Source of the DNA: a virus
DNA: 64,000 nt
Reading direction: 5' to 3' (one strand)
Virus record (IMG/VR): IMGVR_UViG_3300046484_000054
Coordinates: 1 to 64,000 of that record
Shown: piece by piece, positions 7,338 through 64,000 of the stretch
How positions within the stretch are numbered: the stretch's first letter is position 1
Layout of the letters: every line of letters starts with the position of its first letter
Made by a program: the position numbers and the translations under genes
The notes under the pieces: generated by a model
The model's database searches: none
The model's input: the letters and a program-made list of their open reading frames with translations, nothing else
Told to the model about the DNA's origin: nothing

Positions 7338-7463
7338 AATGGTTGACGGTAGTTTGAAACGGGCGGAATTGCAAGAATTTTGTTGCAAATCAGCCCAGTT
7401 TCGCAATCTGTGAACGAAATCTTAACTCGCGGCGGGTTGGCGATTTCAGTTGACAGGGTTTTT

Positions 7464-10678: not shown

Positions 10679-10682
10679 TTTT

Positions 10683-11711
10683 ATGGCACAACTCATCTAT
10701 GGAAGCGGCCCCGACCAACTGATGCAGGCGCAACAGTTTTACGACCAATACAATCTTGGCGCGAACGAATCCAACCGCAACGCCTATATGCGGACGCAGC
10801 AGGAATCCGTTGATGCACAGAATCGGCAGAATGAGGCAGACCGTCGCGCATGGCAGGCGCAGGCAGATGCTCAAGCGAATGCGGCGGGTGCAGCTTCAAC
10901 ACGTGATTGGAATACGAGTCAAGCAGCACTTGAACGCGCTTCGCGCACCAACGACCTCATCATCGGCAAGGCGGCGCAGGATGCTGACAAATCGAACCAG
11001 ATTTTTAACGAGGCTGCGAAGTTGGCGGACAAGGGAATTTTAAGCGACGAGGCGGTGAACACCTACGCCGGATTGCTCTCACCTGAACAACTTCATCGCT
11101 TGCGGCTCATCAATGACTCGGTGAAGCAGCAGGTTGACGCCGCGACCGCAAATCAAAACGCTCCGATTATTGCCGCCAGTCAGGAGGGACAGAAAACTGC
11201 CGACATGTTGAACTCTCCCATTTACGGCAGGATGGTGGCTGATACCACAGCAACGCCACTGCCTGTCAGTTCAGCATTTACGAAGGTGTTTGCGGGAGTG
11301 AACCCCGACGCCATCATTGCTCCCTCGCAGCACGCCATTGATTTCCGCACCCGTCTTGCAAATGAAGTGACCAATGCTGGAAAGGCGAACAGTTTAATCA
11401 CCGCCGCCAATCCTATTACTGGAAGGTTTTCGCCCGCTGTTCCAATGCCCGCCACCTCTGGCACCGGCACGTCTCCGATTGTGCCAAATGTTGCCGCGCC
11501 GGTTCCTCAACCACTTCCAACCCCAATGCCGCCAGCCGCAGCCGCGCCGATTGCACCGGCTTACGATCCGAATAGAACGCCCGCATCGCCAACCCCGAAA
11601 CAAAAACCGACTCGCGCAGTTGCGGCGGCTTATGTCAAAAAATTAGGATTGCAAAAGGCCATCGCAGCAATGCAAGCTGATGGTTACGACACCACCGGAT
11701 ACGCAGACTGA
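10683..11711 (+). CDS. low-complexity Q/A-rich, Pro-rich-tail protein (342 aa)
   Basis: ORF track; coiled-coil-like Q/A/N/D N-terminal half and PxP-rich C-terminus. Confidence 0.6.
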   Translation: MAQLIYGSGPDQLMQAQQFYDQYNLGANESNRNAYMRTQQESVDAQNRQNEADRRAWQAQADAQANAAGAASTRDWNTSQAALERASRTNDLIIGKAAQDADKSNQIFNEAAKLADKGILSDEAVNTYAGLLSPEQLHRLRLINDSVKQQVDAATANQNAPIIAASQEGQKTADMLNSPIYGRMVADTTATPLPVSSAFTKVFAGVNPDAIIAPSQHAIDFRTRLANEVTNAGKANSLITAANPITGRFSPAVPMPATSGTGTSPIVPNVAAPVPQPLPTPMPPAAAAPIAPAYDPNRTPASPTPKQKPTRAVAAAYVKKLGLQKAIAAMQADGYDTTGYAD

Positions 11712-45691: not shown

Positions 45692-45786
45692 AAAATTTTC
45701 AATCGTTGTTTTTTGCTGCTAACGGCATCATTTGCCATGAATTTGCTTGAATCTAATGCCGGTTGGATTACATTGCAAGAACAATT

Positions 45787-48700: not shown

Positions 48701-49011
48701 AGGGCGTGGACAAACCGCACGGGTCGGTCGCACAGCGCGTGTGGCTCTGGAGGCGGCTGTTGGTTCGCAAAAGAATCCTAATATCAGCAACCAAATGTCC
48801 ACGCTTGGTTGCCACGTGCAAGATGCTGAAGCACGGCAGGGTCAGATGGACTTTGCCAACCAAAAGCCCATACAAACATGCGCTTGATTCAGCCACCTAC
48901 CCGCTCCTGAAGGAACTTTGGGATGAGTTGCAAACGAGCATCTGGGCCATCAGAGCACAGAAGAAAAGCCAGATGGACGGCGAAAGCAGTCTCGTGCTGG
49001 TTCACCATTGA
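45787..49011 (+). CDS. terL: terminase large subunit precursor containing an intein
   Basis: Walker A is reconstituted as GPKWSGK|T across the intein. Downstream come ATPase and nuclease-like segments (ICILCESIGAGDDSG, LIILADGNPSDEG, GWDTGGRNPS). The N-terminal ~100 aa is basic. Confidence 0.8.
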   Translation: MPTPKFSQRYPDETDDWRLEVQKAKDRGITDHDELNRIMSRVKTRAYIRNRKKTKLEKPTQFPAASPPMEKPIKVPKAAEFKFDFSPKQWLVLNTVRERCGHRKIIFVNGPKWSGKCISPDTIIYTADGFSTMSELGRADIDSFSPINKDVVSMSETGLDIGVSRADQFYNSGFGEAVIIKTGLGYELTCSQNHPIWCEHNGEIGYKTSEEIAGIVGCGGSVWLPLSRKHPSIRGRKNLTLEVSWTMKQDGQSIDASERIKRAVAGGAKTISAIKASARTANETIHKWLKNPIEPRRTVVEIDENMGYLLGLLTGDGCYTKKTIKGGRIGFTSADEEIVSFVGKMVSGFPHSRFKKLLKYDYCIQSAFFRALLKEIGMSGKYAQEKSIPNIIVKSPVPVIVAFLQGLFDTDGTVERAGSVVYCSASKVLAKQVQDILLGLGIRSSRIFKKNKCLGAWLVSTREEDDFRGKIGFRLARKQNRKPIRERRWKVSWAAYPPSLKGVLQKLYDSRKERGVGMLLRKIHKYAINPVLRGQRALSMKMIAPLAKFINCEQEPEFQSYWMQGKIWWDKVERCSATKSELVDLCVPSTHNFIGNGFINHNTWAALDSVIDYAWRVKDATICILCESIGAGDDSGIWTKLMKRIDTHIKANYGLEWWTEKGKKEHLGARQKGASKRIYAELKNMHGGKSYFELNSLKDEREVEQMFFNRYFSFIYWSELQHSRREETFTHIRQALRMETVAEDDLIILADGNPSDEGQRSWQYKLFFEFRTATDVSEIKKPLQKDLRLIQIFIEDNPYITPEKKLEIAADYADNPDLFARFVKGEWVDAVAGGVFTDVFLPNVHCIGDLKDKDPDILVPTDGCTELVTGWDTGGRNPSTHILEPIILMEDDKPLRCFQYIDELAYVDEDIAPSEFTMQFMEKMDFWEKAIGHDIIWRHWADSSALDFKESIAERTPADEIFATSNGRIILQGVDKPHGSVAQRVWLWRRLLVRKRILISATKCPRLVATCKMLKHGRVRWTLPTKSPYKHALDSATYPLLKELWDELQTSIWAIRAQKKSQMDGESSLVLVHH
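46135..47592 (+). mobile_element. 486-aa class-1 intein with LAGLIDADG homing-endonuclease domain, inserted in the terL P-loop
   Basis: Block A CISPDTIIYTADG directly after GPKWSGK; block B LTCSQNHPIW; LAGLIDADG motifs YLLGLLTGDGCY and FLQGLFDTDGTV; C-terminal VPSTHNFIGNGFINHN followed by the +1 Thr. Confidence 0.85.
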
Positions 49012-53953: not shown

Positions 53954-54982
53954 ATGGAGATTAAACCAGCAACACGTCAAGGGGTGAAGCCGCTTATTGG
54001 CATTTTCTCCGAATCAGGATGCGGTAAAACCATGTCATCGCTATTGCTCGCTCGCGGATTTGTCGGCGCGGCTGGCAAGATCGTCATGGTGGACACCGAA
54101 AGCGGGCGGGGAAGCCTTTACGCCGATGTCATTCCCGGCGGTTACGATGTCATCGAAATGCGAGAGCCGTTTTCTCCAGCGCGATACATAGAGGCCGTTC
54201 AAGAGGTTGAGAAATCGGGCGCGGGGATTCTTGTTATTGATTCCGCAAGCCATGAATGGGAGGGAATCGGCGGAGTCTTGGACATGGCGAACGAAAATGA
54301 AATAAGGACGCAGAAAACCGGACTTCACAACTGGAAACAACCAAAGCAGGAACACGCGAAGTTCATGCTGAAATTGCTTCAATCGTCGCTCCCGATTATT
54401 GTTTGCCTTCGCGCAAAGTTCAAGACCCGCCAAATCAAAGGAACGCAAGAACTCGCCGATGATGGAATTATCCGGCGCGACCAGATCGGGAAAACGGTCA
54501 TTGTAAAAGACGCCGAAACCGAGCCTATTCAAGACGGTAAGTTCATTTACGAAATGATGGCTCACGGCGAAATCATGCAAGACCATTCATTGCGATTGAC
54601 GAAATGCAGCCATCCTTCGTTGCGCGACTGTTTTCCGGTGAACAAGCCAATCGAAATCTGCCACGGCGAAGCCCTTGCCGCGTGGTGCGCCAGCGCGGGG
54701 TCGCCAGCGGGCGTTTCCAGCCCGGTGGCTACCACGACACCCCCTAAATCGTCTGGGGGCACGCTAGGCGAGAAGCAAAAGCTGGAATTGGAGCTTTGGA
54801 CAGTTTTGAAATCAATCAGAACGCCCGGCAAAAAGGGATTTTCGGAAGTAAATTCGTGGCTGTGGCGCGAGGAAATTCTTGATGCCGGAAAAGACCCGGC
54901 TGAAAACGTGGAAAGTCTGACGGCTGAAAAAATGCGCGAAGTTATCAAGGCCGCAAAAGCAAAACTTGGCCAGCTTGTATGA
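53954..54982 (+). CDS. Sak4-like (AAA_24/RecA-like) recombination ATPase
   Basis: Walker A GIFSESGCGKTMSS, Walker B ILVIDSASHEW; the size and neighbouring nuclease fit a phage recombination module. Confidence 0.7.
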   Translation: MEIKPATRQGVKPLIGIFSESGCGKTMSSLLLARGFVGAAGKIVMVDTESGRGSLYADVIPGGYDVIEMREPFSPARYIEAVQEVEKSGAGILVIDSASHEWEGIGGVLDMANENEIRTQKTGLHNWKQPKQEHAKFMLKLLQSSLPIIVCLRAKFKTRQIKGTQELADDGIIRRDQIGKTVIVKDAETEPIQDGKFIYEMMAHGEIMQDHSLRLTKCSHPSLRDCFPVNKPIEICHGEALAAWCASAGSPAGVSSPVATTTPPKSSGGTLGEKQKLELELWTVLKSIRTPGKKGFSEVNSWLWREEILDAGKDPAENVESLTAEKMREVIKAAKAKLGQLV

Positions 54983-55962
54983 TTGATTTTTCAAACTGCA
55001 AAATAGTTGGCGATGGCATTGACCATGACGCTTACGCCAAACAGCCGGACGGCGTGAAGCGCGGCGATGTTGCGTGGGTCATGTCCAGAGGCGAACTGAT
55101 GACATTTGCCAAGTGCCCGGCCAAGTGGATTGCTGGCGTTGAGGATGAGGACACGAAGGCTACGGCATGGGGCGACCTTGTTGATTCTCTTTTGCTGTCT
55201 CCCGCGAAGGCTGAAATTAAGTTCGCCGTCGCGCCAGCCGAATACGAGCCGGGCAAGCCGTGGAATTACAACGCCAAAGTTTGCAAGGCGTGGAAAGAGG
55301 AAAAAGCTTCCGCCGGAATGACGGTGACAACGGAAGCGGAAATGAAGAAGGCTTCAACCGCGCTCCAAGCCCTTCAAAAAAACAAGGACATCATGGAGCT
55401 TGTCGAGTGTTCCAAAACGCAAGTGATGGCGACCGGCGAATACCGCGACAAAGCGACCGGACTCAAAATCCCGCTGAAAATCCTTCTGGATTTAGTGCCG
55501 GATGTTGGAAATGCGCGCTTCGGAAAGTCTTTGGCCGATTTCAAGACGACCAAAAACGCGGCTATGTTTGAATTCGGACGCGACATTAACAATCATCACT
55601 ACGACGCGCAGGGCTGGCTATACAGCGCGATTTACAAGGCGGCGACGAAAGAGGATAAGGTTGACTGGCAAATCGCCGTCCAAGAGTCTGCCGAGCCATA
55701 CCACAGCGAGATTTACACGCTTTCCGATTCTGGTTTCATGTCCCAGACGGGCGAAACCAAAGTCTTGAAGGCGTTGCAACTTTACTGCTGGTGTTTGAAA
55801 AATAAAACGTGGCCGGGATATGCAATGACAGCGCGGGATCGTTACAATGGAATTGCCATCATCCAGCCGGAAGATTGGATGATAACCCGCTTGTCTGAAT
55901 TTTGCCCAATTCCACAAACCGAACAGCCCTTCACCGCCGACGCGAGCGACGTGCCAAGTTGA
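54979..55962 (+). CDS. PD-(D/E)xK (RecB/Cas4-like) exonuclease
   Basis: ILLDLVPD ... LADFKTTK ... HHYDAQGWLY (D, ExK-like and QxxxY motifs); ATGA overlap with the ATPase gene. Confidence 0.65.
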   Translation: MIDFSNCKIVGDGIDHDAYAKQPDGVKRGDVAWVMSRGELMTFAKCPAKWIAGVEDEDTKATAWGDLVDSLLLSPAKAEIKFAVAPAEYEPGKPWNYNAKVCKAWKEEKASAGMTVTTEAEMKKASTALQALQKNKDIMELVECSKTQVMATGEYRDKATGLKIPLKILLDLVPDVGNARFGKSLADFKTTKNAAMFEFGRDINNHHYDAQGWLYSAIYKAATKEDKVDWQIAVQESAEPYHSEIYTLSDSGFMSQTGETKVLKALQLYCWCLKNKTWPGYAMTARDRYNGIAIIQPEDWMITRLSEFCPIPQTEQPFTADASDVPS

Positions 55963-56069
55963 TCTACCGGAGCTATGCCGCGCCGGCGATAAACCAAAAA
56001 CGTAATATGCGGACTCAACCAAACCCAAGCGTGGCCGTTCCCGGCGTCGCGGATCAGCGACTGGTTCGG
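55962..56069 (+). repeat. attC-like element A1 (terminal; left core degenerate)
   Basis: Left ATCTACC; imperfect inner stem ATGCCGCG.. / CGTCGCGGAT; right CAGCGACTG-GTTCGGC. The loop and right arm are about 90 percent identical to A10. Confidence 0.5.
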
Positions 56070-56279
56070 CGAATTCGTCCGCATCGGAACACCATTCGAT
56101 TTAATTGCAGCGGCTATTTTCGAGACAGGATAACCAGACCGGACAACTGCTATAACTGCCTGCGTCGGGACGGCTATCCTCAAAACCTCGGCGGCGACGA
56201 GGCGTGTAAAAACTATTCGCCGAACGAATCAAGCTCAGCGACCCGGAAACGAGACGCTGGGCAAACCAAAGACTTATGA
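56007..56279 (+). CDS. cassette ORF, small Cys-containing protein (90 aa)
   Basis: ATG lies in the loop of A1 ([20 protein letters not shown]...) and the ORF reads through the A2 left arm. Weak protein-likeness. Confidence 0.4.
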   Translation: MRTQPNPSVAVPGVADQRLVRRIRPHRNTIRFNCSGYFRDRITRPDNCYNCLRRDGYPQNLGGDEACKNYSPNESSSATRKRDAGQTKDL

Positions 56280-56327
56280 AAAAAACAGAGACCGACAATC
56301 CGGGTTCGCTAAAGCGCGTTGTTATGC
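56219..56327 (+). repeat. attC-like element A2
   Basis: GCCGAAC ... AGCGA-CCCGG / CCGGG-T-TCGCT ... AAAGCGCGTT-GTTATGC. Confidence 0.8.
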
Positions 56328-56455
56328 TGCGGTGGTTGCGTTCGCGGCGAAAAAGGCTTTTGAAAATGCACGCCGCCGAAAAAGACCGGGGCGTAAAATT
56401 ATACATCGTCGGTCAAACAGACCTGATTGACATTCTAGTTGCAAAATATGAGTGA
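56276..56455 (+). CDS. cassette ORF (59 aa, below the track threshold)
   Basis: Hand-translated MKKTETDNPGSLKRVVMLRWLRSRRKRLLKMHAAEKDRGVKLYIVGQTDLIDILVAKYE. ATG in the A2 loop, ATGA-coupled to the upstream ORF. Confidence 0.45.
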   Translation: MKKTETDNPGSLKRVVMLRWLRSRRKRLLKMHAAEKDRGVKLYIVGQTDLIDILVAKYE

Positions 56456-56636
56456 ACCATCAGAAGCCAGAAAAGTGCTTGGCCCGTTCTTCTACATGAT
56501 GCGTAAGAGGGAAGAAAAATATCGGCTGGATGCGAGGCTGGCGAAAATAAAAGCCGACACAATTCGAGACGTGTATCTCGACCTTGACCAACGGCTCGCA
56601 CAGGAAGAAAATAAGCAGCATAACGTGCCGAACTGA
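56448..56636 (+). CDS. cassette ORF (62 aa)
   Basis: MSEPSEARKV...; 8-nt overlap with the previous ORF; stops in the A3 left arm (..HNVPN*). Confidence 0.5.
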   Translation: MSEPSEARKVLGPFFYMMRKREEKYRLDARLAKIKADTIRDVYLDLDQRLAQEENKQHNVPN

Positions 56637-56728
56637 GGCACGCCGAACCGATGACATCCGAACTCCTAAAACTCGAAGCGAATGACGGCAAGCGCCAATC
56701 GGCGTTGCCTCCAGTGAGTTTGTTCGGC
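56618..56728 (+). repeat. attC-like element A3
   Basis: GCATAAC ... GAGGCA-CGCCGA / TCGGCG-T-TGCCTC ... CAGTGAGTTT-GTTCGGC. Confidence 0.8.
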
Positions 56729-56752
56729 TGGCGCGACTGAAAATATACGAAT

Positions 56753-56983
56753 ATGACAAACATCGAAGAACGAATCGCAGAACTCACAGCACACCGCGCT
56801 TGTGGAAACCAAGAGCAAGACACGCAGAACGGAAAACTCGCCGGATATTGTGTCGTGTGCCAAGTGCCGTGGCCGTGCGAAATCGCAAAACCTCGTAGCT
56901 TCTGGGAGCAGAACGCGAGCGAAAGTCGAGCCATCGCGGAACTTGCAAAACCGTCCACCGCGCAGCCGAACGTGCGGAGCTAA
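56753..56983 (+). CDS. cassette ORF, Cys-rich (76 aa)
   Basis: Starts 25 nt after the A3 right core; CGNQ...CVVCQVPWPC; stops in the A4 left arm (..PNVRS*). Confidence 0.55.
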   Translation: MTNIEERIAELTAHRACGNQEQDTQNGKLAGYCVVCQVPWPCEIAKPRSFWEQNASESRAIAELAKPSTAQPNVRS

Positions 56984-57074
56984 GACGCTCCGCGATTAAA
57001 TTTATGCAAACAAAATCGAAACCAACACTCAAGCGGGAAAACAGCCGGAGTCGTTCTTCAGCGACTTGTTCGGC
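56965..57074 (+). repeat. attC-like element A4
   Basis: GCCGAAC ... AAGA-CG-CTCCG / CGGAG-T-CG-T-TCTT ... CAGCGACTT-GTTCGGC. Confidence 0.7.
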
Positions 57075-57231
57075 GCAAATCGAGGCGCTGTATAAAGCAG
57101 TCCAGAAATACGTCGAAAGCGGCGGCGGCAAACTTGTCGTCATCGGCGGAATAGCAATCCAAGAATGGCCGACAGACAATCCGATGGTGTTCCATGCGGT
57201 TGTTAGGCGCACGGCTACGAAACCAAAATGA
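57004..57231 (+). CDS. cassette ORF (75 aa)
   Basis: ATG in the A4 loop; reads across the A4 right arm and the partial A5. Confidence 0.5.
   Translation: MQTKSKPTLKRENSRSRSSATCSAQIEALYKAVQKYVESGGGKLVVIGGIAIQEWPTDNPMVFHAVVRRTATKPK
57181..57208 (+). repeat. attC-like element A5 (right half only)
   Basis: ..GGTGTTCC-ATGCGGTT-GTTAGGC with no convincing left arm. Its right core plus flank still matches the left core of A6 over 11 nt. Confidence 0.4.
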
Positions 57232-57407
57232 AAGACATCCAAATAGCACTCGACAACCTCGAACAACTGCCCGCGTCCGAACGGGCTAAAACGCTGATGA
57301 CCATCGTTCGCAACCTCGTGACCCAAGCTGATGATAACTACATCGTCACTTGGGAAGAACTCGAATCAACCATCGAAAGCGCCTGCCGTGATGTCAAGTG
57401 CGCCTAA
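57228..57407 (+). CDS. cassette ORF (59 aa, below the track threshold)
   Basis: Hand-translated MKDIQIALDNLEQLPASERAKTLMTIVRNLVTQADDNYIVTWEELESTIESACRDVKCA. The TAA stop lies inside the A6 left core GCC-TAA-C. Confidence 0.45.
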   Translation: MKDIQIALDNLEQLPASERAKTLMTIVRNLVTQADDNYIVTWEELESTIESACRDVKCA

Positions 57408-57535
57408 CAGTGAGGTCAGCAATGGAGACGCCAATGAGAAATAAACGCGCAAATAAATGTAAGCACAGATTTTCAAGAATCTACTGCCCGATTTGTAAGG
57501 GCAAGTCTCCATTGGCTGCACCGGCTTTGTTAGCA
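57402..57535 (+). repeat. attC-like element A6
   Basis: GCCTAAC ... CAGC-AATGGAGAC / GTCTCCATT-G-GCTG ... CACCGGCTTT-GTTAGCA (the bulged base is G). Confidence 0.75.
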
Positions 57536-57730
57536 GTCGTGGAGGGGGCGCTTACAATAATCAACGAGGCTGAGGGATGCTTCATACTTGGGAAAATCTG
57601 CAATGGAAAGGCTCTTCTCGGAGAGGGGAAGGCCATGCTCGAAAAATTAGTGGAGGGGTATGAGTCCACGCCTGCTAACGCCGTGCGTGAGCCATCCCGG
57701 ACTCGCGACGTAAAACAACCAGAAACCTGA
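57422..57730 (+). CDS. cassette ORF (102 aa) with CxH...CxxC knuckle
   Basis: ATG in the A6 loop; CKHRFSRIYCPIC; ends in the A7 loop. Confidence 0.5.
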   Translation: METPMRNKRANKCKHRFSRIYCPICKGKSPLAAPALLAVVEGALTIINEAEGCFILGKICNGKALLGEGKAMLEKLVEGYESTPANAVREPSRTRDVKQPET

Positions 57731-57781
57731 AAGAATAAAGTGCAGCGGCCAACCGGGATTGGTTCGACGCACTTGTTAGGC
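57673..57781 (+). repeat. attC-like element A7
   Basis: TGCTAAC ... GAGCCA-TCCCGG / CCGGGA-T-TGGTTC ... GACGCACTT-GTTAGGC. Confidence 0.8.
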
Positions 57782-57789
57782 GACGACTT

Positions 57790-57987
57790 ATGGACAAAAA
57801 CAAATATCCGTGGAATGAGGCTTGGGATTCTCTCAAGCGAACAATCGAAGAAGACTGCGATGCGCTAAAGGCACTCGTGGACAATGAGGACTCTGCCTGC
57901 AATGCGAGAAACCTGCGCCGCGAAAGAATGATGGCGATGGAATACACGCTACACCTGATGAGTGAACTTGAAAGGTGGGAGTGGTGA
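57790..57987 (+). CDS. cassette ORF (65 aa)
   Basis: ATG 9 nt after the A7 right core; helical acidic protein. Confidence 0.5.
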   Translation: MDKNKYPWNEAWDSLKRTIEEDCDALKALVDNEDSACNARNLRRERMMAMEYTLHLMSELERWEW

Positions 57988-57991
57988 AGTC

Positions 57992-58102
57992 GCCTAACGT
58001 AGAAAGCTGAGCCACCGCCGATTATGAATACTCAAACTCCAGAAACCCGAAGCGAACTCGCCTGCAGGCGTAACGGCGGTTGGCTCCGGCGACTTGTTAG
58101 GT
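57992..58102 (+). repeat. attC-like element A8
   Basis: GCCTAAC-GTAGAAAGCT-GAGCCA-CCGCCG / CGGCGG-T-TGGCTC-CGGCGACTT-GTTAGGT. Confidence 0.85.
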
Positions 58103-58158
58103 GTCTGCTTTTCTACACGAAATGCGCTTCGCTTCGGTTTCAAATTGGTGTTGCTAAA

Positions 58159-58353
58159 TTAGTTAATGCGAGACTTAAAATCACGATTCTCTGCCTCCAA
58201 TTTCGCAACTCTTACTTTCAATCCCCCGGACAATTTCTTTTCTTCGGTGAGAAGGTGCTTGAGTTGCATGACCTCTCTCTCACGTTCCTCGTCGGGGTTG
58301 GAAATCGTGTTCGACCATTTTTTCAATTGTTTCAATTTTTGTTCGTTGTTCAT
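58159..58353 (-). CDS. cassette ORF, coiled-coil protein (64 aa); strand uncertain
   Basis: The minus-strand product MNNEQKLKQLKKW...LEAENRDFKSRIN looks like a real coiled coil. The overlapping + ORF 58024..58410 is L/F-rich like an antisense shadow, although it starts in the A8 loop. Confidence 0.4.
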   Translation of the reverse strand: MNNEQKLKQLKKWSNTISNPDEEREREVMQLKHLLTEEKKLSGGLKVRVAKLEAENRDFKSRIN

Positions 58354-58358
58354 AAGAC

Positions 58359-58485
58359 ACCTAACGAATCAAGCTCAGGCGCGGCGTCTGAGCGAAAGGA
58401 CAATCAATGAAAAGCAAATCTGGAAAATCACAGCGAGCGCGAAATGGCAACGGCAGAAGCCGTTTCCTGAAGCGCGTTGTTAGCA
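58359..58485 (+). repeat. attC-like element A9
   Basis: ACCTAAC-GAATCAAGCT-CAGG-CG-CGGC / GCCG-TTT-CCTG-AAGCGCGTT-GTTAGCA. Confidence 0.7.
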
Positions 58486-58739
58486 GGCTGCAACGAACTA
58501 ACCAGGCCATCGAAGCACTCATCGCGCTGGCCCTTCGTGTTTCCTCGCAGCCGATCAGTGAATCGGAAATGGAATACTTCTGCAAGAAATACTCCGCCGA
58601 CGGAAGTGCGCTTTCAAAAGCTGATGCGGCTGCGCTAAAAAAAGCCCGGCCAGCACTCGTCCAAAAAATCAAAGACATCATGGCGGGAAAGCCTGCTAAC
58701 GGGGAGCTATCCCGCGACGGCGATGAACCCAAAACGTAA
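58407..58739 (+). CDS. cassette ORF (110 aa)
   Basis: ATG in the A9 loop; protein-like helical sequence; ends in the A10 loop. Confidence 0.55.
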
Positions 58740-58804
58740 TATGCGGACTCAACCAAACTCAAGTGGAGGCGTTCCCGGCGTCGCGGATCAGCGACTTGTT
58801 GGGC
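58694..58804 (+). repeat. attC-like element A10
   Basis: TGCTAAC ... ATCC-C-GCGACG / CGTCGC-GGAT ... CAGCGACTT-GTTGGGC (bulge on the 5' arm). Confidence 0.7.
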
Positions 58805-59214
58805 CGCACGGTCCTAAAAAGAGATACTGGGTGACTCCACCGGAAATGATGGCCAGATTAAATGCAGAGTTCCGATTCGATTTTGACCCATGCCCACACC
58901 CACGCCCAGAAGGGTTTGATGGCATCGCCGTCGAATGGGGAAAGCGCAACTGGGTGAATCCACCGTGGACCGGCGGAGTGGGATTATGGAGAACGAAGGC
59001 ACTCGAAGAACGCGAACGAGGAAAAATGAGTGTGCTTCTGCTTCCTCTCTATCAGGTTCGAGTGATTGCAACACTAGGCGAGGCCGGCGCGGAGATACGC
59101 TATGCGGGCGCTCCCGTGTGGCTGGCCATCGAGGACGGAACGCCCAACCCAGTGCCGCCATCGAGTAGGCAACCGTGCCTCCTCCTGATATTGCGGCCCA
59201 ACGAGACGAGATAA
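58741..59214 (+). CDS. phage Dam-type DNA N6-adenine methyltransferase (157 aa)
   Basis: [23 protein letters not shown] ... [10 protein letters not shown] ... resembles the phage N6A MTase family with an NPPW catalytic motif. ATG in the A10 loop. Confidence 0.7.
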
Positions 59215-59377
59215 GCGACCCCGAAAGGACAAGAATTATGCGATGTGATAAATGTAAACAAGAACTGATTGGGCAAGATTGGCATTGGTCGCCCCAAGAT
59301 GGCTACCGGCATAATTCTTGTCCTGTAGGGGCGACCGAAGGGAGACCCGCAGGGTTCGCTTCATCGGCTGGTTCGCC
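59196..59377 (+). repeat. attC-like element A11 (long loop)
   Basis: GCCCAAC ... AGCGA-CCC / GGG-T-TCGCT ... TCATCGGCTG-GTTCGCC; loop of about 130 nt. Confidence 0.65.
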
Positions 59378-59738
59378 TTCCGGCGCGCCGAATACGGATA
59401 AAAGCAAATGCGGCGGGGGTGCGTCCGATGTCTCCAAAACGTCGCACGTCAATGCGGAAGGTGAAACAGACGATTTATCTCGTCTCGTTCGCCTTCCGGT
59501 AAGCGAACTGGCTGCGCTCGTAGAAAAATGGCGGAACGAAAGCTTGGAGCAATTTGAATCCTCTAGGCATTGTCACGAACGACAAGAGTATGCGAGCGAG
59601 CAGTGGTTTATAGGTGCTTCAAACACCAAATCTTTTTGTGCGCTTGAATTGCTTGAAACCTTAGCAGCCAGCGCCCCCCAGCGCAGCGGGGGCGAGCGGC
59701 TGGAGGCGAACGCCGCGCATAAGCCGTGCGGCGATTAA
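59238..59738 (+). CDS. cassette ORF (166 aa), N-terminal CxxC...C
   Basis: MRCDKCKQELIG...; AAGGA upstream; ATG inside the long A11 loop. Confidence 0.55.
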   Translation: MRCDKCKQELIGQDWHWSPQDGYRHNSCPVGATEGRPAGFASSAGSPSGAPNTDKSKCGGGASDVSKTSHVNAEGETDDLSRLVRLPVSELAALVEKWRNESLEQFESSRHCHERQEYASEQWFIGASNTKSFCALELLETLAASAPQRSGGERLEANAAHKPCGD

Positions 59739-59813
59739 GAATATGGAAACTATTTTGCAACCAACTTCTGAGCGTGGGAATACCCCGCATCGGTCTTCAT
59801 GCGCTTGTTCGGC
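59705..59813 (+). repeat. attC-like element A12
   Basis: GGCGAAC ... AAG-CCG-TGCGG / CCGCA-T-CGG-T-CTT ... CATGCGCTT-GTTCGGC. Confidence 0.7.
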
Positions 59814-60303
59814 TTCTGTGCTGGACGTGTGCTGCGGGAGTCGAATGTTCTGGTTCGATAAAGCTGACCCTCGCGCCCTATTCGTGGATAAACGCCGCGA
59901 AACCCTGATAGACAACACCGGCCCGAAACCCGCCAGCATCGTCGTGAATCCTGATGTGCTCGCAAATTTCAAATCTCTGCCGTTTCCAGACTGCACTTTT
60001 CCGCTGGTCGTGTTCGACCCGCCGCATACTTGGTGCGGGCCGAATGGTAGGACGATAAAGAAATACGGAAGCCTGCCGCTCGACTGGCGGAATGAAATAT
60101 CGGACGGCTTCCGCGAATGCTTCCGCGTGCTGTGTCCGCTTGGGACTCTCGTTTTCAAATGGAATGAACATCGGGTGAAGCTGACAACTGTTTTGTCACT
60201 CACCGACCATAAGCCGCTGTTTGGGCAGAGGGTCGGAAACACTCGAACTCACTGGATCGTGTATCAGAAGCCGAACGATCAAGCTGACCTACCGCCGCGA
60301 TGA
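59743..60303 (+). CDS. SAM-dependent methyltransferase, probably DNA N6-A/N4-C
   Basis: Motif I VLDVCCGS, then motif IV-like VVFDPPH; ATG in the A12 loop. Confidence 0.6.
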   Translation: METILQPTSERGNTPHRSSCACSASVLDVCCGSRMFWFDKADPRALFVDKRRETLIDNTGPKPASIVVNPDVLANFKSLPFPDCTFPLVVFDPPHTWCGPNGRTIKKYGSLPLDWRNEISDGFRECFRVLCPLGTLVFKWNEHRVKLTTVLSLTDHKPLFGQRVGNTRTHWIVYQKPNDQADLPPR

Positions 60304-60377
60304 ACTCGACGCTTGATATTGTGACCGACGCCCAACCTGTGGGAACTCCGGCGGTTAGGTCCGGCGCGTTGTTAGCA
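60270..60377 (+). repeat. attC-like element A13
   Basis: GCCGAAC-GATCAAGCTG-ACCTA-CCGCC / GGCGG-T-TAGGT-CCGGCGCGTT-GTTAGCA. Confidence 0.8.
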
Positions 60378-60387
60378 CCCAAGACCA

Positions 60388-60642
60388 ATGACTATGAAAA
60401 ATAAATTCTGCATAAACTGCAAATGGCAAGACGGCATCTACTGCCGGTCGCCAAAGATTCCAACTGAATCAAATCCCGTCACCGGCGAATCAAAGCCGTG
60501 GCTGCAATGCTGCGAGTCGCACCGAACCGGATGCTTCACAAGCTGGATCGGATGCCGACTGAATGGGCTGTGTGGCAAGGAAGGGCGCTGGTTCGAGGCT
60601 AAAACCCAAAGCGCCGCCTTGGGTGCTAACGTGCGGAGCTGA
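60388..60642 (+). CDS. cassette ORF, Cys-rich (84 aa)
   Basis: FCINCKWQDGIYC...CCESH...C...C...C; starts 11 nt after the A13 right core; ends ..ANVRS* in A14. Confidence 0.5.
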   Translation: MTMKNKFCINCKWQDGIYCRSPKIPTESNPVTGESKPWLQCCESHRTGCFTSWIGCRLNGLCGKEGRWFEAKTQSAALGANVRS

Positions 60643-60732
60643 ACCACCGCGAAATTATGACAAACGAAAACCAGAAACCTTCTCGGCCAACCTGCGGCGA
60701 CAATCGCGGTTGGTTCCGGCGACTGGTTAGGC
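60624..60732 (+). repeat. attC-like element A14
   Basis: TGCTAAC-GTGCGGAGCT-GAACCA-CCGCGA / TCGCGG-T-TGGTTC-CGGCGACTG-GTTAGGC. GAACCA/TGGTTC is a compensatory change relative to GAGCCA/TGGCTC. Confidence 0.85.
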
Positions 60733-60995
60733 CACACGGCTTCATCGCGCCAAGAGGCTACGCAGAACCGGACGACGAATATCGCAGCCGCTTTAATTTT
60801 GTCTGGTGGTTCTGGCTGCCAAGAATCCACACGCAACGACCCGACACGCAGAACCCGCGAGTAATCCGAATCATCTGGCTGTGCTTTGCAGCAGGACTGG
60901 ACATCTGGGGCGATGAGTCTCGCAAGGTGTGGCCTAACGAATCAAGCTCACCGATGCTGCGCCGAAAAACCAAAAGCCATGAACAAAGCCTCTGA
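60657..60995 (+). CDS. cassette ORF (112 aa), Trp-rich hydrophobic segment
   Basis: ATG in the A14 loop; FNFVWWFWLPRIH...IIWLCFAAGLDIWG. Confidence 0.45.
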   Translation: MTNENQKPSRPTCGDNRGWFRRLVRPHGFIAPRGYAEPDDEYRSRFNFVWWFWLPRIHTQRPDTQNPRVIRIIWLCFAAGLDIWGDESRKVWPNESSSPMLRRKTKSHEQSL

Positions 60996-61063
60996 CAATC
61001 GAAAAACGCTGGACGCCGAAAACTGCGGGAGTAAGCAGCATTCGGTGCAGCGATTTGTTAGAC
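60932..61063 (+). repeat. attC-like element A15
   Basis: GCCTAAC-GAATCAAGCT-CACCGA-TGCTGC / GCAGCA-T-TCGGTG-CAGCGATTT-GTTAGAC. The stem sequence is entirely different but the architecture is identical. Confidence 0.85.
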
Positions 61064-61281
61064 GGCTTTGTGTGATATGTGGAGCAAAAGTCCGCAATCA
61101 AAATCCGAAGACAAACACATGCGACCCGATCTGCACGCGAGCCAAGCACGCCAACCGGACGCGGCAGGAACAAATCGAGCATGAAATGGCCGTGGATGAA
61201 TACAATGACTGCATGGCCGGTCACGCTCACCTGTGGTATGAAACCGACGAACCGCGAGTAAAACGAAAGATACGAATATGA
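60979..61281 (+). CDS. cassette ORF, zinc-ribbon-like (100 aa)
   Basis: ATG in the A15 loop; CVICGAKV...NTCDPIC. Confidence 0.5.
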   Translation: MNKASDNRKTLDAENCGSKQHSVQRFVRRLCVICGAKVRNQNPKTNTCDPICTRAKHANRTRQEQIEHEMAVDEYNDCMAGHAHLWYETDEPRVKRKIRI

Positions 61282-61541
61282 GCCAATGCACTAAATGCGA
61301 GACAAACTTTGTCGGCACGCCGGAAAATCCTCCGGTGCCGGGACTTTGCAAGTATTGCGAGATCGAAATCTTGCGAAAGGGGATTGATGCGGTCTGCCAA
61401 CTGATGGCACAGAGCCAAGGAGTAACCGGACTGCATCTGAACGGAGACGTTGCAACGTGGGATGATTTGAGGACGGGCGGCAAGATGGAAGAATGGCTTG
61501 TCGAGTTTGACGATGCGGTAAAAATACTACCACCAATATGA
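61278..61541 (+). CDS. cassette ORF (87 aa), CxxC...CxxC
   Basis: ATGA-coupled; CTKCETNF...CKYCE. Confidence 0.5.
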   Translation: MSQCTKCETNFVGTPENPPVPGLCKYCEIEILRKGIDAVCQLMAQSQGVTGLHLNGDVATWDDLRTGGKMEEWLVEFDDAVKILPPI

Positions 61542-61723
61542 GCAACATCAATCTTCACACCTGCGAGAAAGCCGCACCCGGCTGGCAAAATAAGTGCAAA
61601 CCTTGCGCCGAATGTGAGAGCGAAATAAGACGCCGGAAAATGGCGGATGACTTTTGCCGCTCAGAAACCGTGGCAGACTTTGAAAAGCGCACGAACTTGA
61701 AGCCGTCTAACGTAGAAAGCTGA
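61538..61723 (+). CDS. cassette ORF (61 aa), Cys-rich
   Basis: ATGA-coupled; ends ..PSNVES* in A16. Confidence 0.5.
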   Translation: MSNINLHTCEKAAPGWQNKCKPCAECESEIRRRKMADDFCRSETVADFEKRTNLKPSNVES

Positions 61724-61814
61724 GCCACCACGAACTATGGACACCCAACAACCAGCGACCCTCGCGGAGTCACGGAAAGCGCCAATCGTGGTTGGCTCCG
61801 GCGACTTGTTAGGC
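61705..61814 (+). repeat. attC-like element A16
   Basis: GTCTAAC-GTAGAAAGCT-GAGCCA-CCACGA / TCGTGG-T-TGGCTC-CGGCGACTT-GTTAGGC. Confidence 0.85.
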
Positions 61815-62042
61815 ATCGTCAAAAGCAAAAAGACTCTGCCTCCATACCACATTCCGACGTATAAAAAAATACTGCCTCATGTTCATAATCGCGGAAATTT
61901 CGAGTGGAAGTGTCCAAAATGCGGGGCGGTAGTAATACGGCACCACAAGCGGAAGCCCAAAGGATGTCCTAAATGTATGGATCGCCGAAACATGATTCGC
62001 GTGGGATGGAATGGCGGCAAGATGCCTAACGACCGGAGCTGA
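61737..62042 (+). CDS. cassette ORF, zinc-ribbon (101 aa)
   Basis: ATG in the A16 loop; CPKCGAVV...CPKC; ends ..PNDRS* in A17. Confidence 0.5.
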   Translation: MDTQQPATLAESRKAPIVVGSGDLLGIVKSKKTLPPYHIPTYKKILPHVHNRGNFEWKCPKCGAVVIRHHKRKPKGCPKCMDRRNMIRVGWNGGKMPNDRS

Positions 62043-62122
62043 GCCATGACGGAACTAAATCTCACACCCGCGAAGCGGAACTGCGACGGCCAACCGTCAT
62101 TGGCTCCGGCGACTTGTTGGGC
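62024..62122 (+). repeat. attC-like element A17
   Basis: GCCTAAC-GACCGGAGCT-GAGCCA-TGACGG / CCGTCA-T-TGGCTC-CGGCGACTT-GTTGGGC. Confidence 0.85.
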
Positions 62123-62909
62123 GGAAATTTCGTGGATCATCGAAAATATAACGAAAGAATCCAGCCTGCTCGAACTCGCCGAAGCTGTGAAGAAAGCAGG
62201 TAGCCAACTCTTTGAAATCAATGGTGACTACACCGCGCAGACAATCAAAGAACTGCGGCGATATGCCGCTGGCAAAACCGTAATCTTCGACGGCTCAATC
62301 AACATGGCCGAACTCGTGACGCGAGACGTGCCAACCATCCGCGTCATCGGAACGTCAGAAAACTATCTGTGCAGCCGCTACTATCCGAAATGTGATGGAC
62401 TGATGTTCAATGATAAATACTTGCTGCTGCCGATGCGAGAGATTGAAGCGGCGGCAACGCTGGCTGTGGACGGATGCGTGTTCGTGCGTCCTGATGGCGG
62501 TCAGAAACAATTCCAAGCCGCGCTCGTGGAGGTCGGAGAACTCGCCGCGTTGAAAAGACATGGCGAAATGATGGTGCTGGTGTCACCGCCGAAGAACATA
62601 ACGGGCGAATGGCGATGCGTGTGTGACGCCTGCGGAATCGTGGCGGTGTCGAGCTACCGAATCAAAGGTCAACCAATTCGTGAACCCTCTGCGCCAAGTG
62701 GTGCGCTCCAAATGTGCGAGAATGTCGCCACGAGATACCTGCCTGACCCGCTGTTCGTTGTAGATGTGTGTGCCGACACTGACGGGAACTTATGGCTGAT
62801 GGAACTGAACCAATTTACGGGGGCTGGACTGTATGCCTGCGACAAGGCCGCTATCGTGCGCGCCGTGGAACGTGTGGCGTCCGCCTTTCCGCCCAACGTA
62901 GAAAGCTGA
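62046..62909 (+). CDS. ATP-grasp (DUF4343-like) protein (287 aa)
   Basis: FVRPDGGQKQFQAALV ... GEWRCVC ... VVDVCADTDGNLWLMELNQFTGAGLY resembles the phage ATP-grasp family. The only in-frame start is the ATG in the A17 loop. Confidence 0.6.
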   Translation: MTELNLTPAKRNCDGQPSLAPATCWAEISWIIENITKESSLLELAEAVKKAGSQLFEINGDYTAQTIKELRRYAAGKTVIFDGSINMAELVTRDVPTIRVIGTSENYLCSRYYPKCDGLMFNDKYLLLPMREIEAAATLAVDGCVFVRPDGGQKQFQAALVEVGELAALKRHGEMMVLVSPPKNITGEWRCVCDACGIVAVSSYRIKGQPIREPSAPSGALQMCENVATRYLPDPLFVVDVCADTDGNLWLMELNQFTGAGLYACDKAAIVRAVERVASAFPPNVES

Positions 62910-62989
62910 GCCACCGCCGACCTGCGACGCGAACCGCGATAGCGGAACGGACAGCGCCAACGGCGGTTGGCTCCGGCGACTGGTTAGGC
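62891..62989 (+). repeat. attC-like element A18
   Basis: GCCCAAC-GTAGAAAGCT-GAGCCA-CCGCCG / CGGCGG-T-TGGCTC-CGGCGACTG-GTTAGGC. Confidence 0.85.
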
Positions 62990-63015
62990 TGCATTTCGTG
63001 AACTGACATAAAAAT

Positions 63016-63222
63016 ATGACGACTCAAAATAATATCGGCACCAACACGCTGCTGGCTCGGCGAATCCGAGAAATCATGCCGCCAAAAGTTGCCGACGACT
63101 TTATGAACTCGCCGCGATACGGCGAACTCCAAGCGGCGGCTGACTCCGGCTTGCCGTTCTGGATCGGAAAAACTGAAACTGGATCATGGGACTTTGCCAT
63201 AAATGACCGCCATGCAGCCTAA
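63016..63222 (+). CDS. cassette ORF (68 aa)
   Basis: Starts 27 nt after the A18 right core; the TAA stop lies inside the A19 left core. Confidence 0.5.
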   Translation: MTTQNNIGTNTLLARRIREIMPPKVADDFMNSPRYGELQAAADSGLPFWIGKTETGSWDFAINDRHAA

Positions 63223-63316
63223 CATTCGGAGCTGAGCCATGCGCGACAAAACGACATCCAACCGCGAAGCGGAACTGACGTGGCCATCGCGCATTGGCTC
63301 CGGCGACTGGTTAGGA
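63217..63316 (+). repeat. attC-like element A19
   Basis: GCCTAAC-ATTCGGAGCT-GAGCCA-TGCGCGA / TCGCGCA-T-TGGCTC-CGGCGACTG-GTTAGGA. Confidence 0.85.
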
Positions 63317-63340
63317 CACTGGTCGAACTGAACTAAATCT

Positions 63341-63571
63341 ATGAAAAAACTCAAATGCAAATGTGAACTCTGCACGAAATGGTCGCCGCTCCATCGGCGC
63401 ATCATGGCAAAGCTGCGTGGCAAAGATAAAAAACTCTTCGATGAATTTTTGATGATGGTCTGGAATGACAGCGACGACCTCGGCGCGGCAAATGCAAAGC
63501 TGGCCGGTGAATGGCCGGGCTGGGAATGGATGCCTGAAGTCATAAAACAAAAAATGGGCGAAGTGGCCTAA
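63341..63571 (+). CDS. cassette ORF (76 aa)
   Basis: MKKLKCKCELC...; the TAA stop lies inside the A20 left core. Confidence 0.5.
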   Translation: MKKLKCKCELCTKWSPLHRRIMAKLRGKDKKLFDEFLMMVWNDSDDLGAANAKLAGEWPGWEWMPEVIKQKMGEVA

Positions 63572-63664
63572 CGCCTCGAACTCAGCCACCGGCGACCGAG
63601 GCGCGTCGCCCGCGAAGGCGGACGGCAAGGCGTAACGCCGGTTGGCTGAAGTGAGTTGTTAGCA
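63566..63664 (+). repeat. attC-like element A20
   Basis: GCCTAAC-GCCTCGAACT-CAGCCA-CCGGCG / CGCCGG-T-TGGCTG-AAGTGAGTT-GTTAGCA. CAGCCA/TGGCTG is compensatory. Confidence 0.8.
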
Positions 63665-63678
63665 GGCGAATTTTAGAT

Positions 63679-63945
63679 ATGAAAACACGACAACAAAACA
63701 TCACGGAACTGAAAGCCGCCATCGTAAAAACCGAGGCTGCTATCACAACGACAAAGACGGCTCTGATGGCAACGGAGGCGCGACTGGAACGCCAGCGGGC
63801 GCATCTGAACACCCAACTCATGCTGAATAAGTTCGACCAGATAGACCAACTGCGCCAGCAAATCAGCGACATCATCGCCGCGAACAAATGGACAGTCACA
63901 ACAGATGGACACATCAACGAACTCGAACAACAGGACAAACAATGA
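63679..63945 (+). CDS. cassette ORF, coiled-coil (88 aa)
   Basis: Starts 15 nt after the A20 right core. Confidence 0.5.
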   Translation: MKTRQQNITELKAAIVKTEAAITTTKTALMATEARLERQRAHLNTQLMLNKFDQIDQLRQQISDIIAANKWTVTTDGHINELEQQDKQ

Positions 63946-64000
63946 TAACCGACCTATCACGCGGAAAGCCTCTGCCGGAAGGCAAGAGCAAAACCTTCAA
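63942..64000 (+). CDS. partial ORF running off the window
   Basis: ATGA-coupled start MITDLSRGKPLPEGKSKTF... Confidence 0.3.
   Translation, partial: MITDLSRGKPLPEGKSKTF

Follow-up and report, generated by a model that had tools for sequence, protein, structure and literature searches.

Evidence for an integron-type cassette array with inverted gene polarity in an uncultivated phage genome

Integrons are usually viewed as bacterial devices that phages carry now and then or serve as targets. The sedentary chromosomal integron array has its paradigm in the superintegron of Vibrio cholerae, with its Vibrio cholerae repeats (VCRs), and the unpaired spacer of the well-studied attC sites is about 5–6 nt long. 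Integrons and clusters of attC sites lacking an integrase (CALINs) are already described in phages: among 10,705 isolate phage genomes, with two attC sites as the minimum for a CALIN, there were 17 CALINs, one In0 and three complete integrons, all three captured from bacteria, five of six phage attC sites recombined with IntI1, and an exchange of cassettes between phages and bacteria was proposed (Qi et al. 2023, PMC9892861). Our full-text searches of the literature gave no description of large phage arrays, of a phage IntI clade, of Verrucomicrobia phage integrons or of inverted polarity. Here we analyze positions 1 to 64,000 of the IMG/VR virus record IMGVR_UViG_3300046484_000054 (the window, that is, the whole 64,000-nt stretch), in which attC-like elements separate small genes between 55962 and 63664. 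We conclude that this region is very probably a genuine integron-type cassette array, a CALIN with no integrase in the same genome, located among the early accessory genes of a phage whose genome is circular or circularly permuted.

An earlier note, made from the letters alone, had pointed out copies of a 99–182 nt element at consecutive gene boundaries, and sequence reading, repeat finding and a per-element table reproduced its 19 full copies and the half element A5. In total, the region 55962–63664 contains 19 full elements and two half-sites, all on the + strand. The architecture given in that note was found in every element: a RYYYAAC-type left core, a spacer of 8–10 nt with a conserved AGCT, a stem of about 12 bp, a variable loop, the stem complement interrupted by one extra T after 6 bp, a right spacer of about 9 nt (CGGCGACTT and variants), and a GTTRRRY-type right core, with a core-to-core span of 99–182 nt. 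Both AAC and GTT are kept by 18 of 18 aligned elements, with the degenerate left core of A1 as the one exception. The claim that the stem is kept by compensatory change also held, since 11 of the 12 inner-stem pairs change on both sides and pairing occupies 83% of the cells, compared with 67% after shuffling (0 of 500 shuffles) and 24–50% when the partner is slid. A covariance model trained on 18 elements gave 19 matches in the 64 kb window, all on the + strand within 55962–63664 and including A11, which had been left out of the training; outside that interval, the search of the window gave no match at E ≤ 1. Folding of A8, A17 and A18 as DNA gave the R box, spacer, L box and loop, and in this respect the folding proposed in the earlier note was borne out; a clear thermodynamic asymmetry between bottom and top strand was tested for and did not emerge. 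These data show that each element is an attC site, namely a single-strand hairpin conserved in its structure, in which an unpaired spacer separates the R box from an L-box stem of about 12 bp with one extrahelical T, and which ends in a variable loop.

The most telling property of the array is the relation between neighbouring elements. The right core of element n is perfectly complementary to the left core of element n+1 over 11, 10, 9, 3, 8, 10, 11, 11, 11, 8, 12, 13, 12, 12, 10, 12, 12 and 6 nt, a mean of 10.06 nt with at least 8 nt at 16 of the 18 junctions. Within single elements the two cores match over a mean of only 4.44 nt, as weakly as had been noted, and 306 non-cognate pairs average 4.20 nt; none of 100000 permutations reached the observed sum. 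The earlier count of 17 complementary junctions out of 19 is thus upheld in substance by the recount, which also returned its two exceptions, the failure at A4/A5 and the mismatch at A19/A20. Pairs of the form GTT.../...AAC with at least 9 nt number 15 cognate cases in the 7.7 kb array and six, by chance, in the other 56 kb. The rule also extends to other loci (L-numbered loci are stretches fetched from IMG/VR, from GTDB genomes and by look-ups), where 52 of 78 junctions reach at least 9 nt compared with about 2.7% of random pairs. The attC sites of the window are as follows, with covariance model scores in brackets and A15 given below under cassette 15:

55962–56070, + strand: A1, at the distal end of the array, with a degenerate left core (ATCTACC), right core GTTCGGC and an ATG in the loop (55.0 bits)
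56219–56327, + strand: A2 attC (77.9 bits)
56618–56728, + strand: A3 attC (84.3 bits)
56965–57074, + strand: A4 attC (73.3 bits)
57172–57208, + strand: A5, a right half-site only (3' arm and GTTAGGC core), whose core pairs with the left core of A6
57402–57535, + strand: A6 attC with a long loop (52.8 bits)
57673–57781, + strand: A7 attC (76.9 bits)
57992–58102, + strand: A8 attC, whose DNA minimum-free-energy fold gives R box, L box and T bulge (90.6 bits)
58359–58485, + strand: A9 attC (63.6 bits)
58694–58804, + strand: A10 attC, with the cassette 10 start codon inside (67.8 bits)
59196–59377, + strand: A11 attC, 182 nt (36.7 bits)
59705–59813, + strand: A12 attC (48.6 bits)
60270–60377, + strand: A13 attC (72.8 bits)
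60624–60732, + strand: A14 attC (95.8 bits)
61705–61814, + strand: A16 attC (96.6 bits)
62024–62122, + strand: A17 attC, 99 nt, host-like, with the cassette 17 ATG in its 5' stem arm (96.4 bits)
62891–62989, + strand: A18 attC (83.9 bits)
63217–63316, + strand: A19 attC (76.5 bits)
63566–63664, + strand: A20 attC, the last within the window (74.7 bits)

A second right core of A11, at 59487–59493, pairs perfectly over 15 nt with the left arm of that element and constitutes a half-site.

The identity of these sites is supported by their relatives in bacteria. A 20-nt right-arm motif was present in 26 IMG/VR stretches and, in slightly degenerate form, in at least 120 stretches of GTDB genomes; 60 of the 80 matches listed were labelled Verrucomicrobiae, Limisphaerales, Pedosphaera and the like, and many lay on contigs of 0.3–1.4 Mb. 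With the covariance model, 92 elements were detected in the viral loci and 265 and 158 in the genome and look-up loci, and the bacterial arrays held 15–20 elements per 8 kb, with one strand per array. Full-length IntI homologs (44–54% identity to an IntI1 probe) stand beside the arrays in 16 bacterial loci; the IntI1 sequence served as the tblastn probe and as one alignment row, and was used only to locate the open reading frames (ORFs), which were then tested separately with NCBIfam. The protein from L095 scored 464.7 bits against TIGR02249 'integron integrase' (cutoff 265), and the IntI-specific insertion (LP..L..KY..A....W) aligned in it. A18 agrees almost base for base with the 99-nt consensus attC of the Verrucomicrobiae chromosomal arrays, and A17–A20 as a whole resemble that consensus. 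Thus, the bacterial arrays are sedentary chromosomal integrons with homogeneous attC sites, the phage elements are of the same attC family, and because this family forms arrays beside TIGR02249 integrases in Verrucomicrobiae, the phage elements are themselves attC sites. The earlier note had classed them as attC-type sites conserved in structure, a view that the shared family corroborates, and had proposed an integron-type or analogous recombinase, of which the integron type finds support in what follows: for it the 16 bacterial loci and the divergent phage IntI clade described below provide support. The phage host likely belongs to the Verrucomicrobiae (Limisphaerales/Pedosphaera group) in soil.

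Some of the bacterial loci deserve mention in their own right. Contigs of GTDB Verrucomicrobiae metagenome-assembled genomes (MAGs; L028, L055 with L036, L072, L076, L081 and L131) carry chromosomal integrons with very homogeneous 99-nt attC sites, at 15–20 cassettes per 8 kb, and L036 and L055 lie on one 392 kb contig, where the two loci together have over 25 detected cassettes; Verrucomicrobia thus show a situation like that of the VCR superintegron. Verrucomicrobia-type attC arrays with IntI were also seen on MAG contigs from binchicken co-assemblies that are labelled 'Bifidobacteriaceae' (L029, L043, L045, L073, L083, L090, L095 and L096), labels that likely reflect mis-binning.

The strand on which an attC site recombines can be read from its asymmetry: the extrahelical bases of the bottom strand lie on the arm opposite 5'-AAC-3', and cleavage occurs between A and C (Nivina et al. 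2016, PMC5027507). On the + strand of the window, the 5' arm contains the AAC and the 3' arm the extra T; the + strand is therefore the bottom, recombinogenic strand, because the extra T lies opposite the AAC arm. In all integrase-bearing bacterial and phage loci, viewed in the orientation of the window + strand, intI stands to the right of the array and reads rightwards, which is the mirror image of the textbook map and agrees independently with this assignment. The bacterial arrays show the canonical polarity, in which the longest ORF of 84 of the 96 cassettes is on the − strand and starts 5–15 nt from the core, and the other 12 cassettes are inverted; some of this minority may be of phage origin. 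The phage loci L233–L242, in contrast, have 130 of 136 gene calls on the + strand, and the window genes with Pfam or PHROG support (both DNA methyltransferases and the ATP-grasp protein) are all on the + strand. Phage arrays are systematically inverted in gene-to-attC polarity, with the attC site preceding the gene on the coding strand, and their ORFs do not lie on the attC top strand reading away from intI/attI as in the textbook arrangement. A phage cassette consists of an attC body, then the gene or genes, then RYYYAA.

Cassette mobility could be followed with the 3' part of the array, whose units are the following:

60934–61711, + strand: cassette 15 mobile unit, comprising the A15 body (60932–61063) and three genes, and ending in AAGCCGTCTAAC
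60979–61281, 61278–61541 and 61538–61723, + strand: genes of cassette 15
63016–63222, + strand: cassette 18 gene, 68 aa
63310–63572, + strand: cassette 19 gene block with a 76-aa ORF at 63341–63571, bounded by GTTAGGACACTGG and GTGGCCTAAC
63659–64000, + strand: start of cassette 20, with an 88-aa gene at 63679–63945 and then a 98-aa gene that crosses the window end

The 87-aa protein of cassette 15 is indexed, in identical form, in 72 blocks of the collection. Its DNA (60934–61711), that is, the A15 body, the three genes and the next AAC, was recovered at 96–99.6% identity in seven fetched loci (within L233–L241), in which six unrelated upstream contexts precede the left AAC and five contexts follow directly on the right AAC, namely four different attC bodies and one non-attC sequence, and the identity breaks exactly at both AAC cores. 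Three of the different upstream contexts have the same spacer (GACC) after the AAC; the spacer therefore belongs to the downstream unit, and the crossover falls inside CTAAC, where AA|C cleavage would place it. The proposal that the units are mobile is confirmed for cassette 15 by these contexts, and the composite cores together with the breakpoints at AAC support the further claim that the variable part of a core travels with the neighbouring unit. For cassette 20, the block common to L148 and L151 is exactly GTTAGCAGGC, two genes and GCCTGCTAAC, and the same attC body lies downstream of this block in L148 and upstream of it in L151, a pattern expected if a circular cassette can open at either core. 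In the comparison of the window with L016 and L233, the common block extends through the A16 body to GTTAG, a breakpoint at the right core. On sequence comparison, crossovers thus fall at the left core, the canonical bottom-strand site, and, less often, at the right core, where highly conserved arms adjoin the breakpoints and these are not always separable from homologous exchange.

Exchange also reaches arrays of the bacterial type. The cassette 19 block aligns with L246 (748–1194) and L247 without any mismatch, and in both loci its neighbours to the left and right are attC bodies of the host consensus and cassettes with ORFs on the − strand; one of these neighbouring ORFs has a homolog in the bacterial array locus L137. 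The cassette 18 gene occurs in at least five other array contexts, mostly with − strand (bacterial-type) neighbours. On the short contigs L246, L247 and L250–L257, the phage cassette 18 and 19 genes thus stand among cassettes of canonical bacterial polarity, and we infer from the polarity of the neighbours, the consensus attC bodies and the one homolog that these contigs are bacterial. Cassettes therefore move between phages and also between phage arrays and arrays of the bacterial type. This second kind of exchange was detected only through exact-protein look-ups, as a tblastn search of the cassette proteins against the fetched bacterial loci gave no convincing homolog. An all-against-all search for shared blocks among the fetched loci, to which we confined a half-site nhmmer detector that is less sensitive than the covariance model (13 of the 19 window elements), gave too few informative blocks, and breakpoints within bacterial arrays are blurred because all attC bodies are alike.

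It could be argued that the repeats are mere patches of homology, through which a phage exonuclease/annealase module shuffles genes by homologous recombination without any site-specific recombinase. A recombination module always precedes the arrays (AAA_24 and PDDEXK genes in the window, YqaJ and ERF genes in L235 and L236), and some blocks, such as that of A16 against L233 and the cassette 18 blocks, end in conserved arms where the breakpoint cannot be told from the edge of homology. However, homologous recombination would not make a gene-specific inverted repeat of 8–13 nt around every gene block, the sequences compared for cassettes 15, 19 and 20 are unrelated outside the breakpoint on one or both sides, the bases common to both partners at the junctions are only CTAAC or GTTAG and too short for such exchange, and the same sites adjoin integron integrases in bacteria and phages, so we consider this explanation highly unlikely compared with an integron-type array.

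The position of the array beside such modules is itself worth recording, because it recurs in unrelated phages with different genes: AAA_24 and PDDEXK here (53954–55962), and YqaJ or ERF with YqaJ elsewhere, with YqaJ and ERF genes ahead of the arrays in L235 (1–163) and L236 (1–1627). The place could simply be a hot spot for accessory genes, or array and module could be functionally linked by the production of single-stranded DNA.

Arrays of this family also occur next to integrases in phages. The viral contigs L010/L152, L023/L166 and L007 encode IntI-like proteins, which scored 263.8 and 225.9 bits against TIGR02249 (cutoff 265), with this family the best over the full length and the IntI insertion present. 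A single-protein scan with the L010 IntI retrieved itself and one distant match only; an alignment-based scan of IMG/VR yielded a phage IntI clade with 46–63% identity to the L010 protein (L152, L154–L167), in which the IntI-specific insertion is followed by a 6-residue deletion. The integrase lies at about 10001–10980 in most of these loci, and in most of them elements of the attC family are directly upstream of the integrase on the same strand. The members of the clade belong to real phages, because in L155 Mu-like genes for a protease and a major head protein lie 2–5 kb from the integrase; in L155 itself no element of the attC family was detected. Among the viral loci with arrays, L015 and L016, both from IMGVR_UViG_3300048821_000195 (32.4 kb), hold two arrays near the two ends of the contig and on opposite strands; should the contig be circular, these arrays would converge on its junction.

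In the window, the Pfam search of 74 ORFs found no integrase or tyrosine recombinase, and seven IntI sequences, used as tblastn queries on the window and on the 7.5 kb that complete the genome, gave a best E of 0.085. No intI adjoins the array on the same replicon, as it would in a complete integron; a CALIN requires two or more attC sites in one orientation without a nearby intI, and the 19 full sites of the window and A21 beyond it, all on the + strand of a genome (about 71.6 kb) that lacks IntI, place the array among the CALINs, with a size of about 21 cassettes. The array might then be an inert relic, a piece of a host chromosomal integron that was acquired once by illegitimate recombination and is merely carried, for which the missing integrase, the likeness of A17–A20 to the host consensus, the degenerate left core of A1 and the half-site A5 could be quoted. 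Against this, the gene polarity is the opposite of that in the host arrays, the cargo resembles phage genes and includes DNA methyltransferases that match PHROGs, the cognate cores remain perfectly complementary over 8–13 nt at 16 of 18 junctions, and near-identical cassettes in many phage contexts point to recent and repeated exchange. We therefore give the relic only a very slim chance and retain the reading as an integron-type cassette array. The TnpB-like ORF, which is the only mobile-element protein of the window and has no TnpA nearby, was also considered as a catalyst and was ruled out, as the sites match IntI-associated attC sites.

The array extends farther than had been thought. The earlier note let it end at 63664, which proved too short: the cassette 20 block runs to GCCTGCTAAC, and A21 and cassette 21 follow beyond the window. 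The right end lies about 820 nt past position 64000 (L148, 970–1059 and 1604), where the terminus TCGGAGTGCTAAC is followed by non-attC DNA. Beyond this integrase-side end (L148 1604–3000, L149 and L150), near-identical phages differ in which small genes they have: L150 carries one of 93 aa, and both L149 and L150 carry one of 63 aa. No detectable attC is associated with these differences. A 66.3 kb Logan contig, found by exact-protein look-up, links the window end (63218–64000) to the window start through 7505 extra bases, and the longest contig with cassette proteins measures 71,632 nt; the genome is thus circular or circularly permuted and about 71.6 kb long. The 66.3 kb Logan contig (SRR35913720_150) itself ends inside A8 (57992–58102) and A19 (63217–63316) and omits the intervening 5.2 kb. 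Since short-read assemblies break up at attC repeats, collections of viral contigs probably contain phage arrays too rarely or in truncated form.

The array is flanked by phage genes: upstream lies the PDDEXK gene, and a few kb downstream a gene for a DNA polymerase III beta clamp. The upstream genes are:

53954–54982, + strand: AAA_24 (Sak4-like) ATPase gene, which belongs to the phage recombination module (Pfam PF13479, E = 6.7e-10)
54979–55962, + strand: PDDEXK (DUF3799) exonuclease-like gene, whose stop codon abuts A1 (Pfam PF12684, E = 6.3e-17)

Elsewhere in the window, the + strand carries a large terminase gene with an intein containing a LAGLIDADG homing-endonuclease domain (45763–49011), a gene for a 2035-aa polyvalent protein with an ART-PolyVal ADP-ribosyltransferase domain (16980–23087), and, in the structural region, the TnpB/Cas12f1-like ORF (7380–8648; TNB domain, E = 4.9e-25). 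Beta-helix and galactose-binding tail-fibre-like proteins are encoded as well, and no tRNA genes were found in the window. Megablast of 40000–64000 against 50,697 deposited phage genomes gave no match, and a search of IMG/VR with the PDDEXK protein returned one distant locus only. In two other viral contigs (L013 510–837 and L017 9470–9865), a BLAST staircase offset by 15 nt marks a region of 15-nt tandem repeats, which would have a 5-residue periodicity if coding.

The attC sites also take part in the coding of the cassette genes, of which the following bear on this point or have recognizable products:

56007–56279, + strand: cassette 1 ORF, 90 aa, Cys-rich, starting in the A1 loop (from the ORF list)
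58159–58353, − strand: cassette 8 ORF, 64 aa, the sole − strand cassette gene (from the ORF list and a gene call in L243)
58723–59214, + strand: cassette 10 Dam-like DNA methyltransferase, 163 aa, with its start in the A10 loop and its stop in the A11 left spacer (Pfam Dam, E = 0.0013; phrog_111, E = 2.4e-10; homolog alignment)
59743–60303, + strand: cassette 12 DNA methyltransferase, 186 aa (phrog_954, E = 1.2e-62)
62046–62909, + strand: cassette 17 ATP-grasp (R2K) protein, 287 aa (Pfam R2K_2 and R2K_3; phrog_7313, E = 1.9e-36, residues 28–278)

An ATG that reads at least 40 codons past the right core is held by 44 of 84 viral elements. In cassette 17, the PHROG profile begins at residue 28, just past the right core, and there is no in-frame start codon between the loop ATG and about residue 50; in cassette 10, only loop ATGs lie upstream of the conserved methyltransferase N-terminus. 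At the other end of the genes, 8 of 18 window ORFs stop at the T(G/A)A of an AGCTGA motif 12 nt after AAC, and 3 of 18 at the TAA inside CTAAC. The loops of A1 and A10 (58694–58804) are homologous and encode the same 17-residue N-terminal peptide (MRTQPN...), which is fused to two unrelated proteins, the Cys-rich 90-aa protein and the Dam-like methyltransferase. A homolog of cassette 12 is the integrase-proximal cassette in the IntI-bearing phage locus L162.

Start codons in loop or stem, together with stops at fixed positions that cluster at +12 and within the core, could suggest that the elements are primarily RNA-level stem-loops for termination, processing or translational control, and that their likeness to attC is secondary. 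Yet they lack T-runs and do not have the features of intrinsic terminators or of repetitive extragenic palindromic (REP)-like repeats; a scan of the window showed no enrichment of promoter-like sites, and its 14 terminator-like sites, compared with 12.3 expected, do not coincide systematically with the elements. Composite cores, cassette mobility and the association with IntI would all be left unexplained. An RNA-level role may have been added as a further layer, but we find it scarcely credible as the origin of the elements, which we continue to regard as recombination sites.

In the mechanism that we propose, an IntI-family tyrosine recombinase would be supplied in trans, by a host chromosomal integron or by a co-infecting IntI-bearing phage, and would act on folded single strands; the events at the right core would be recombination of the top strand, favoured by the single extrahelical base. 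The whole array would be expressed by read-through from the upstream early operon, a mode of expression that fits the lack of promoter and terminator enrichment, and the attC loop would often supply the start codon and the left arm of the next attC the stop codons. As for the cargo, the two DNA methyltransferases, the ATP-grasp enzyme and the small Zn-ribbon-like proteins may serve host takeover or anti-defence. We further speculate that the inverted polarity makes the recombinogenic strand the non-template strand and lets attC act as a 5' translation module, and that this strand might be the lagging-strand template too if the genes run with replication. A wider proposal, which we offer tentatively and would rate a little short of an even chance, is that Verrucomicrobia phages run a phage-adapted integron system with four joint features. 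The gene would be on the bottom strand with attC at its 5' side, so that attC would be a translation-start module and the next attC a universal stop; some phages would encode a divergent IntI and others, such as the present one, would borrow an integrase; both strands of the single-bulge attC would recombine, so that gene blocks and attC bodies would reassort independently; and cassettes would flow both ways between the phage arrays and the host chromosomal integron, where they would appear as 'inverted' cassettes.

Several observations weigh against reading the region as an integron-type array of a Verrucomicrobiae phage. The Rfam 15 scan of the window gave no family at the gathering threshold, the phage spacer of 9–10 nt is longer than the roughly 5–6 nt of the well-studied attC sites, and the phage sites have one extrahelical T, unlike attCaadA7 and VCR2 with their 2–3 bases. 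As the phage genome (about 71.6 kb) encodes no integrase, catalysis would take place in trans, and the breakpoints at the right core are not predicted by the canonical mechanism, which uses the bottom strand only. Comparison of related contigs, in which the earlier note had proposed to look for both altered cassette contexts and circular junctions, gave the former; in the metagenome contigs of the Joint Genome Institute (JGI), neither a circle or tandem junction of cassette 15 nor its precise empty site was matched (0 matches each). The assignment to the host draws on attC identity and shared cassettes alone.

The present array bears on how phages and integrons are connected. A phage lineage appears to keep a large, actively exchanged array of the chromosomal attC family of its presumed host, and identical gene blocks in both kinds of array are direct evidence from nature that cassettes pass between phage and host and that phages use integron recombination to shuffle accessory genes, probably including anti-restriction methyltransferases. 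The inverted polarity contradicts the expectation, derived from mobile and chromosomal integrons, that cassettes are kept only in an orientation readable from the promoter, and the occurrence of crossovers at the left and the right core alike suggests that this attC family selects only weakly between the strands. Polarity and crossover points together bear on how the choice of strand is enforced and on how genes become associated with attC, both open questions in the field.

Compared with sedentary chromosomal arrays, the phage array likewise has many cassettes separated by mutually similar attC sites, RYYYAAC/GTTRRRY cores, composite cores between neighbours and a structure kept by compensatory change, and its sites are literally of the same attC family as those of the Verrucomicrobiae chromosomal arrays, which stand beside TIGR02249 integrases there. 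It differs from them in its location in a phage genome without intI and with no recognisable attI or cassette promoter (Pc), in genes that lie on the attC bottom rather than top strand, in longer attC loops that often contain a start codon, and in crossovers at the right core too. With the phage CALINs described earlier (Qi et al. 2023, PMC9892861), which occur in virulent and temperate phages, it shares integrase-less clusters of attC sites and DNA methyltransferase cargo, whereas about 21 homogeneous attC sites in one array, a pattern that dozens of uncultivated phage contigs share, an IntI clade specific to phages and a systematically inverted polarity set it apart. At the level of the single site, the phage elements are built like attCaadA7 and VCR2 (Nivina et al. 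2016, PMC5027507), with an R box and an L box separated by an unpaired central spacer, one or more extrahelical bases and a terminal structure that varies, with the extrahelical base opposite the AAC arm on the recombinogenic strand and the crossover in AAC; unlike those sites, they show a complementarity of 8–13 nt between cognate R boxes and natural evidence of crossover at both cores.

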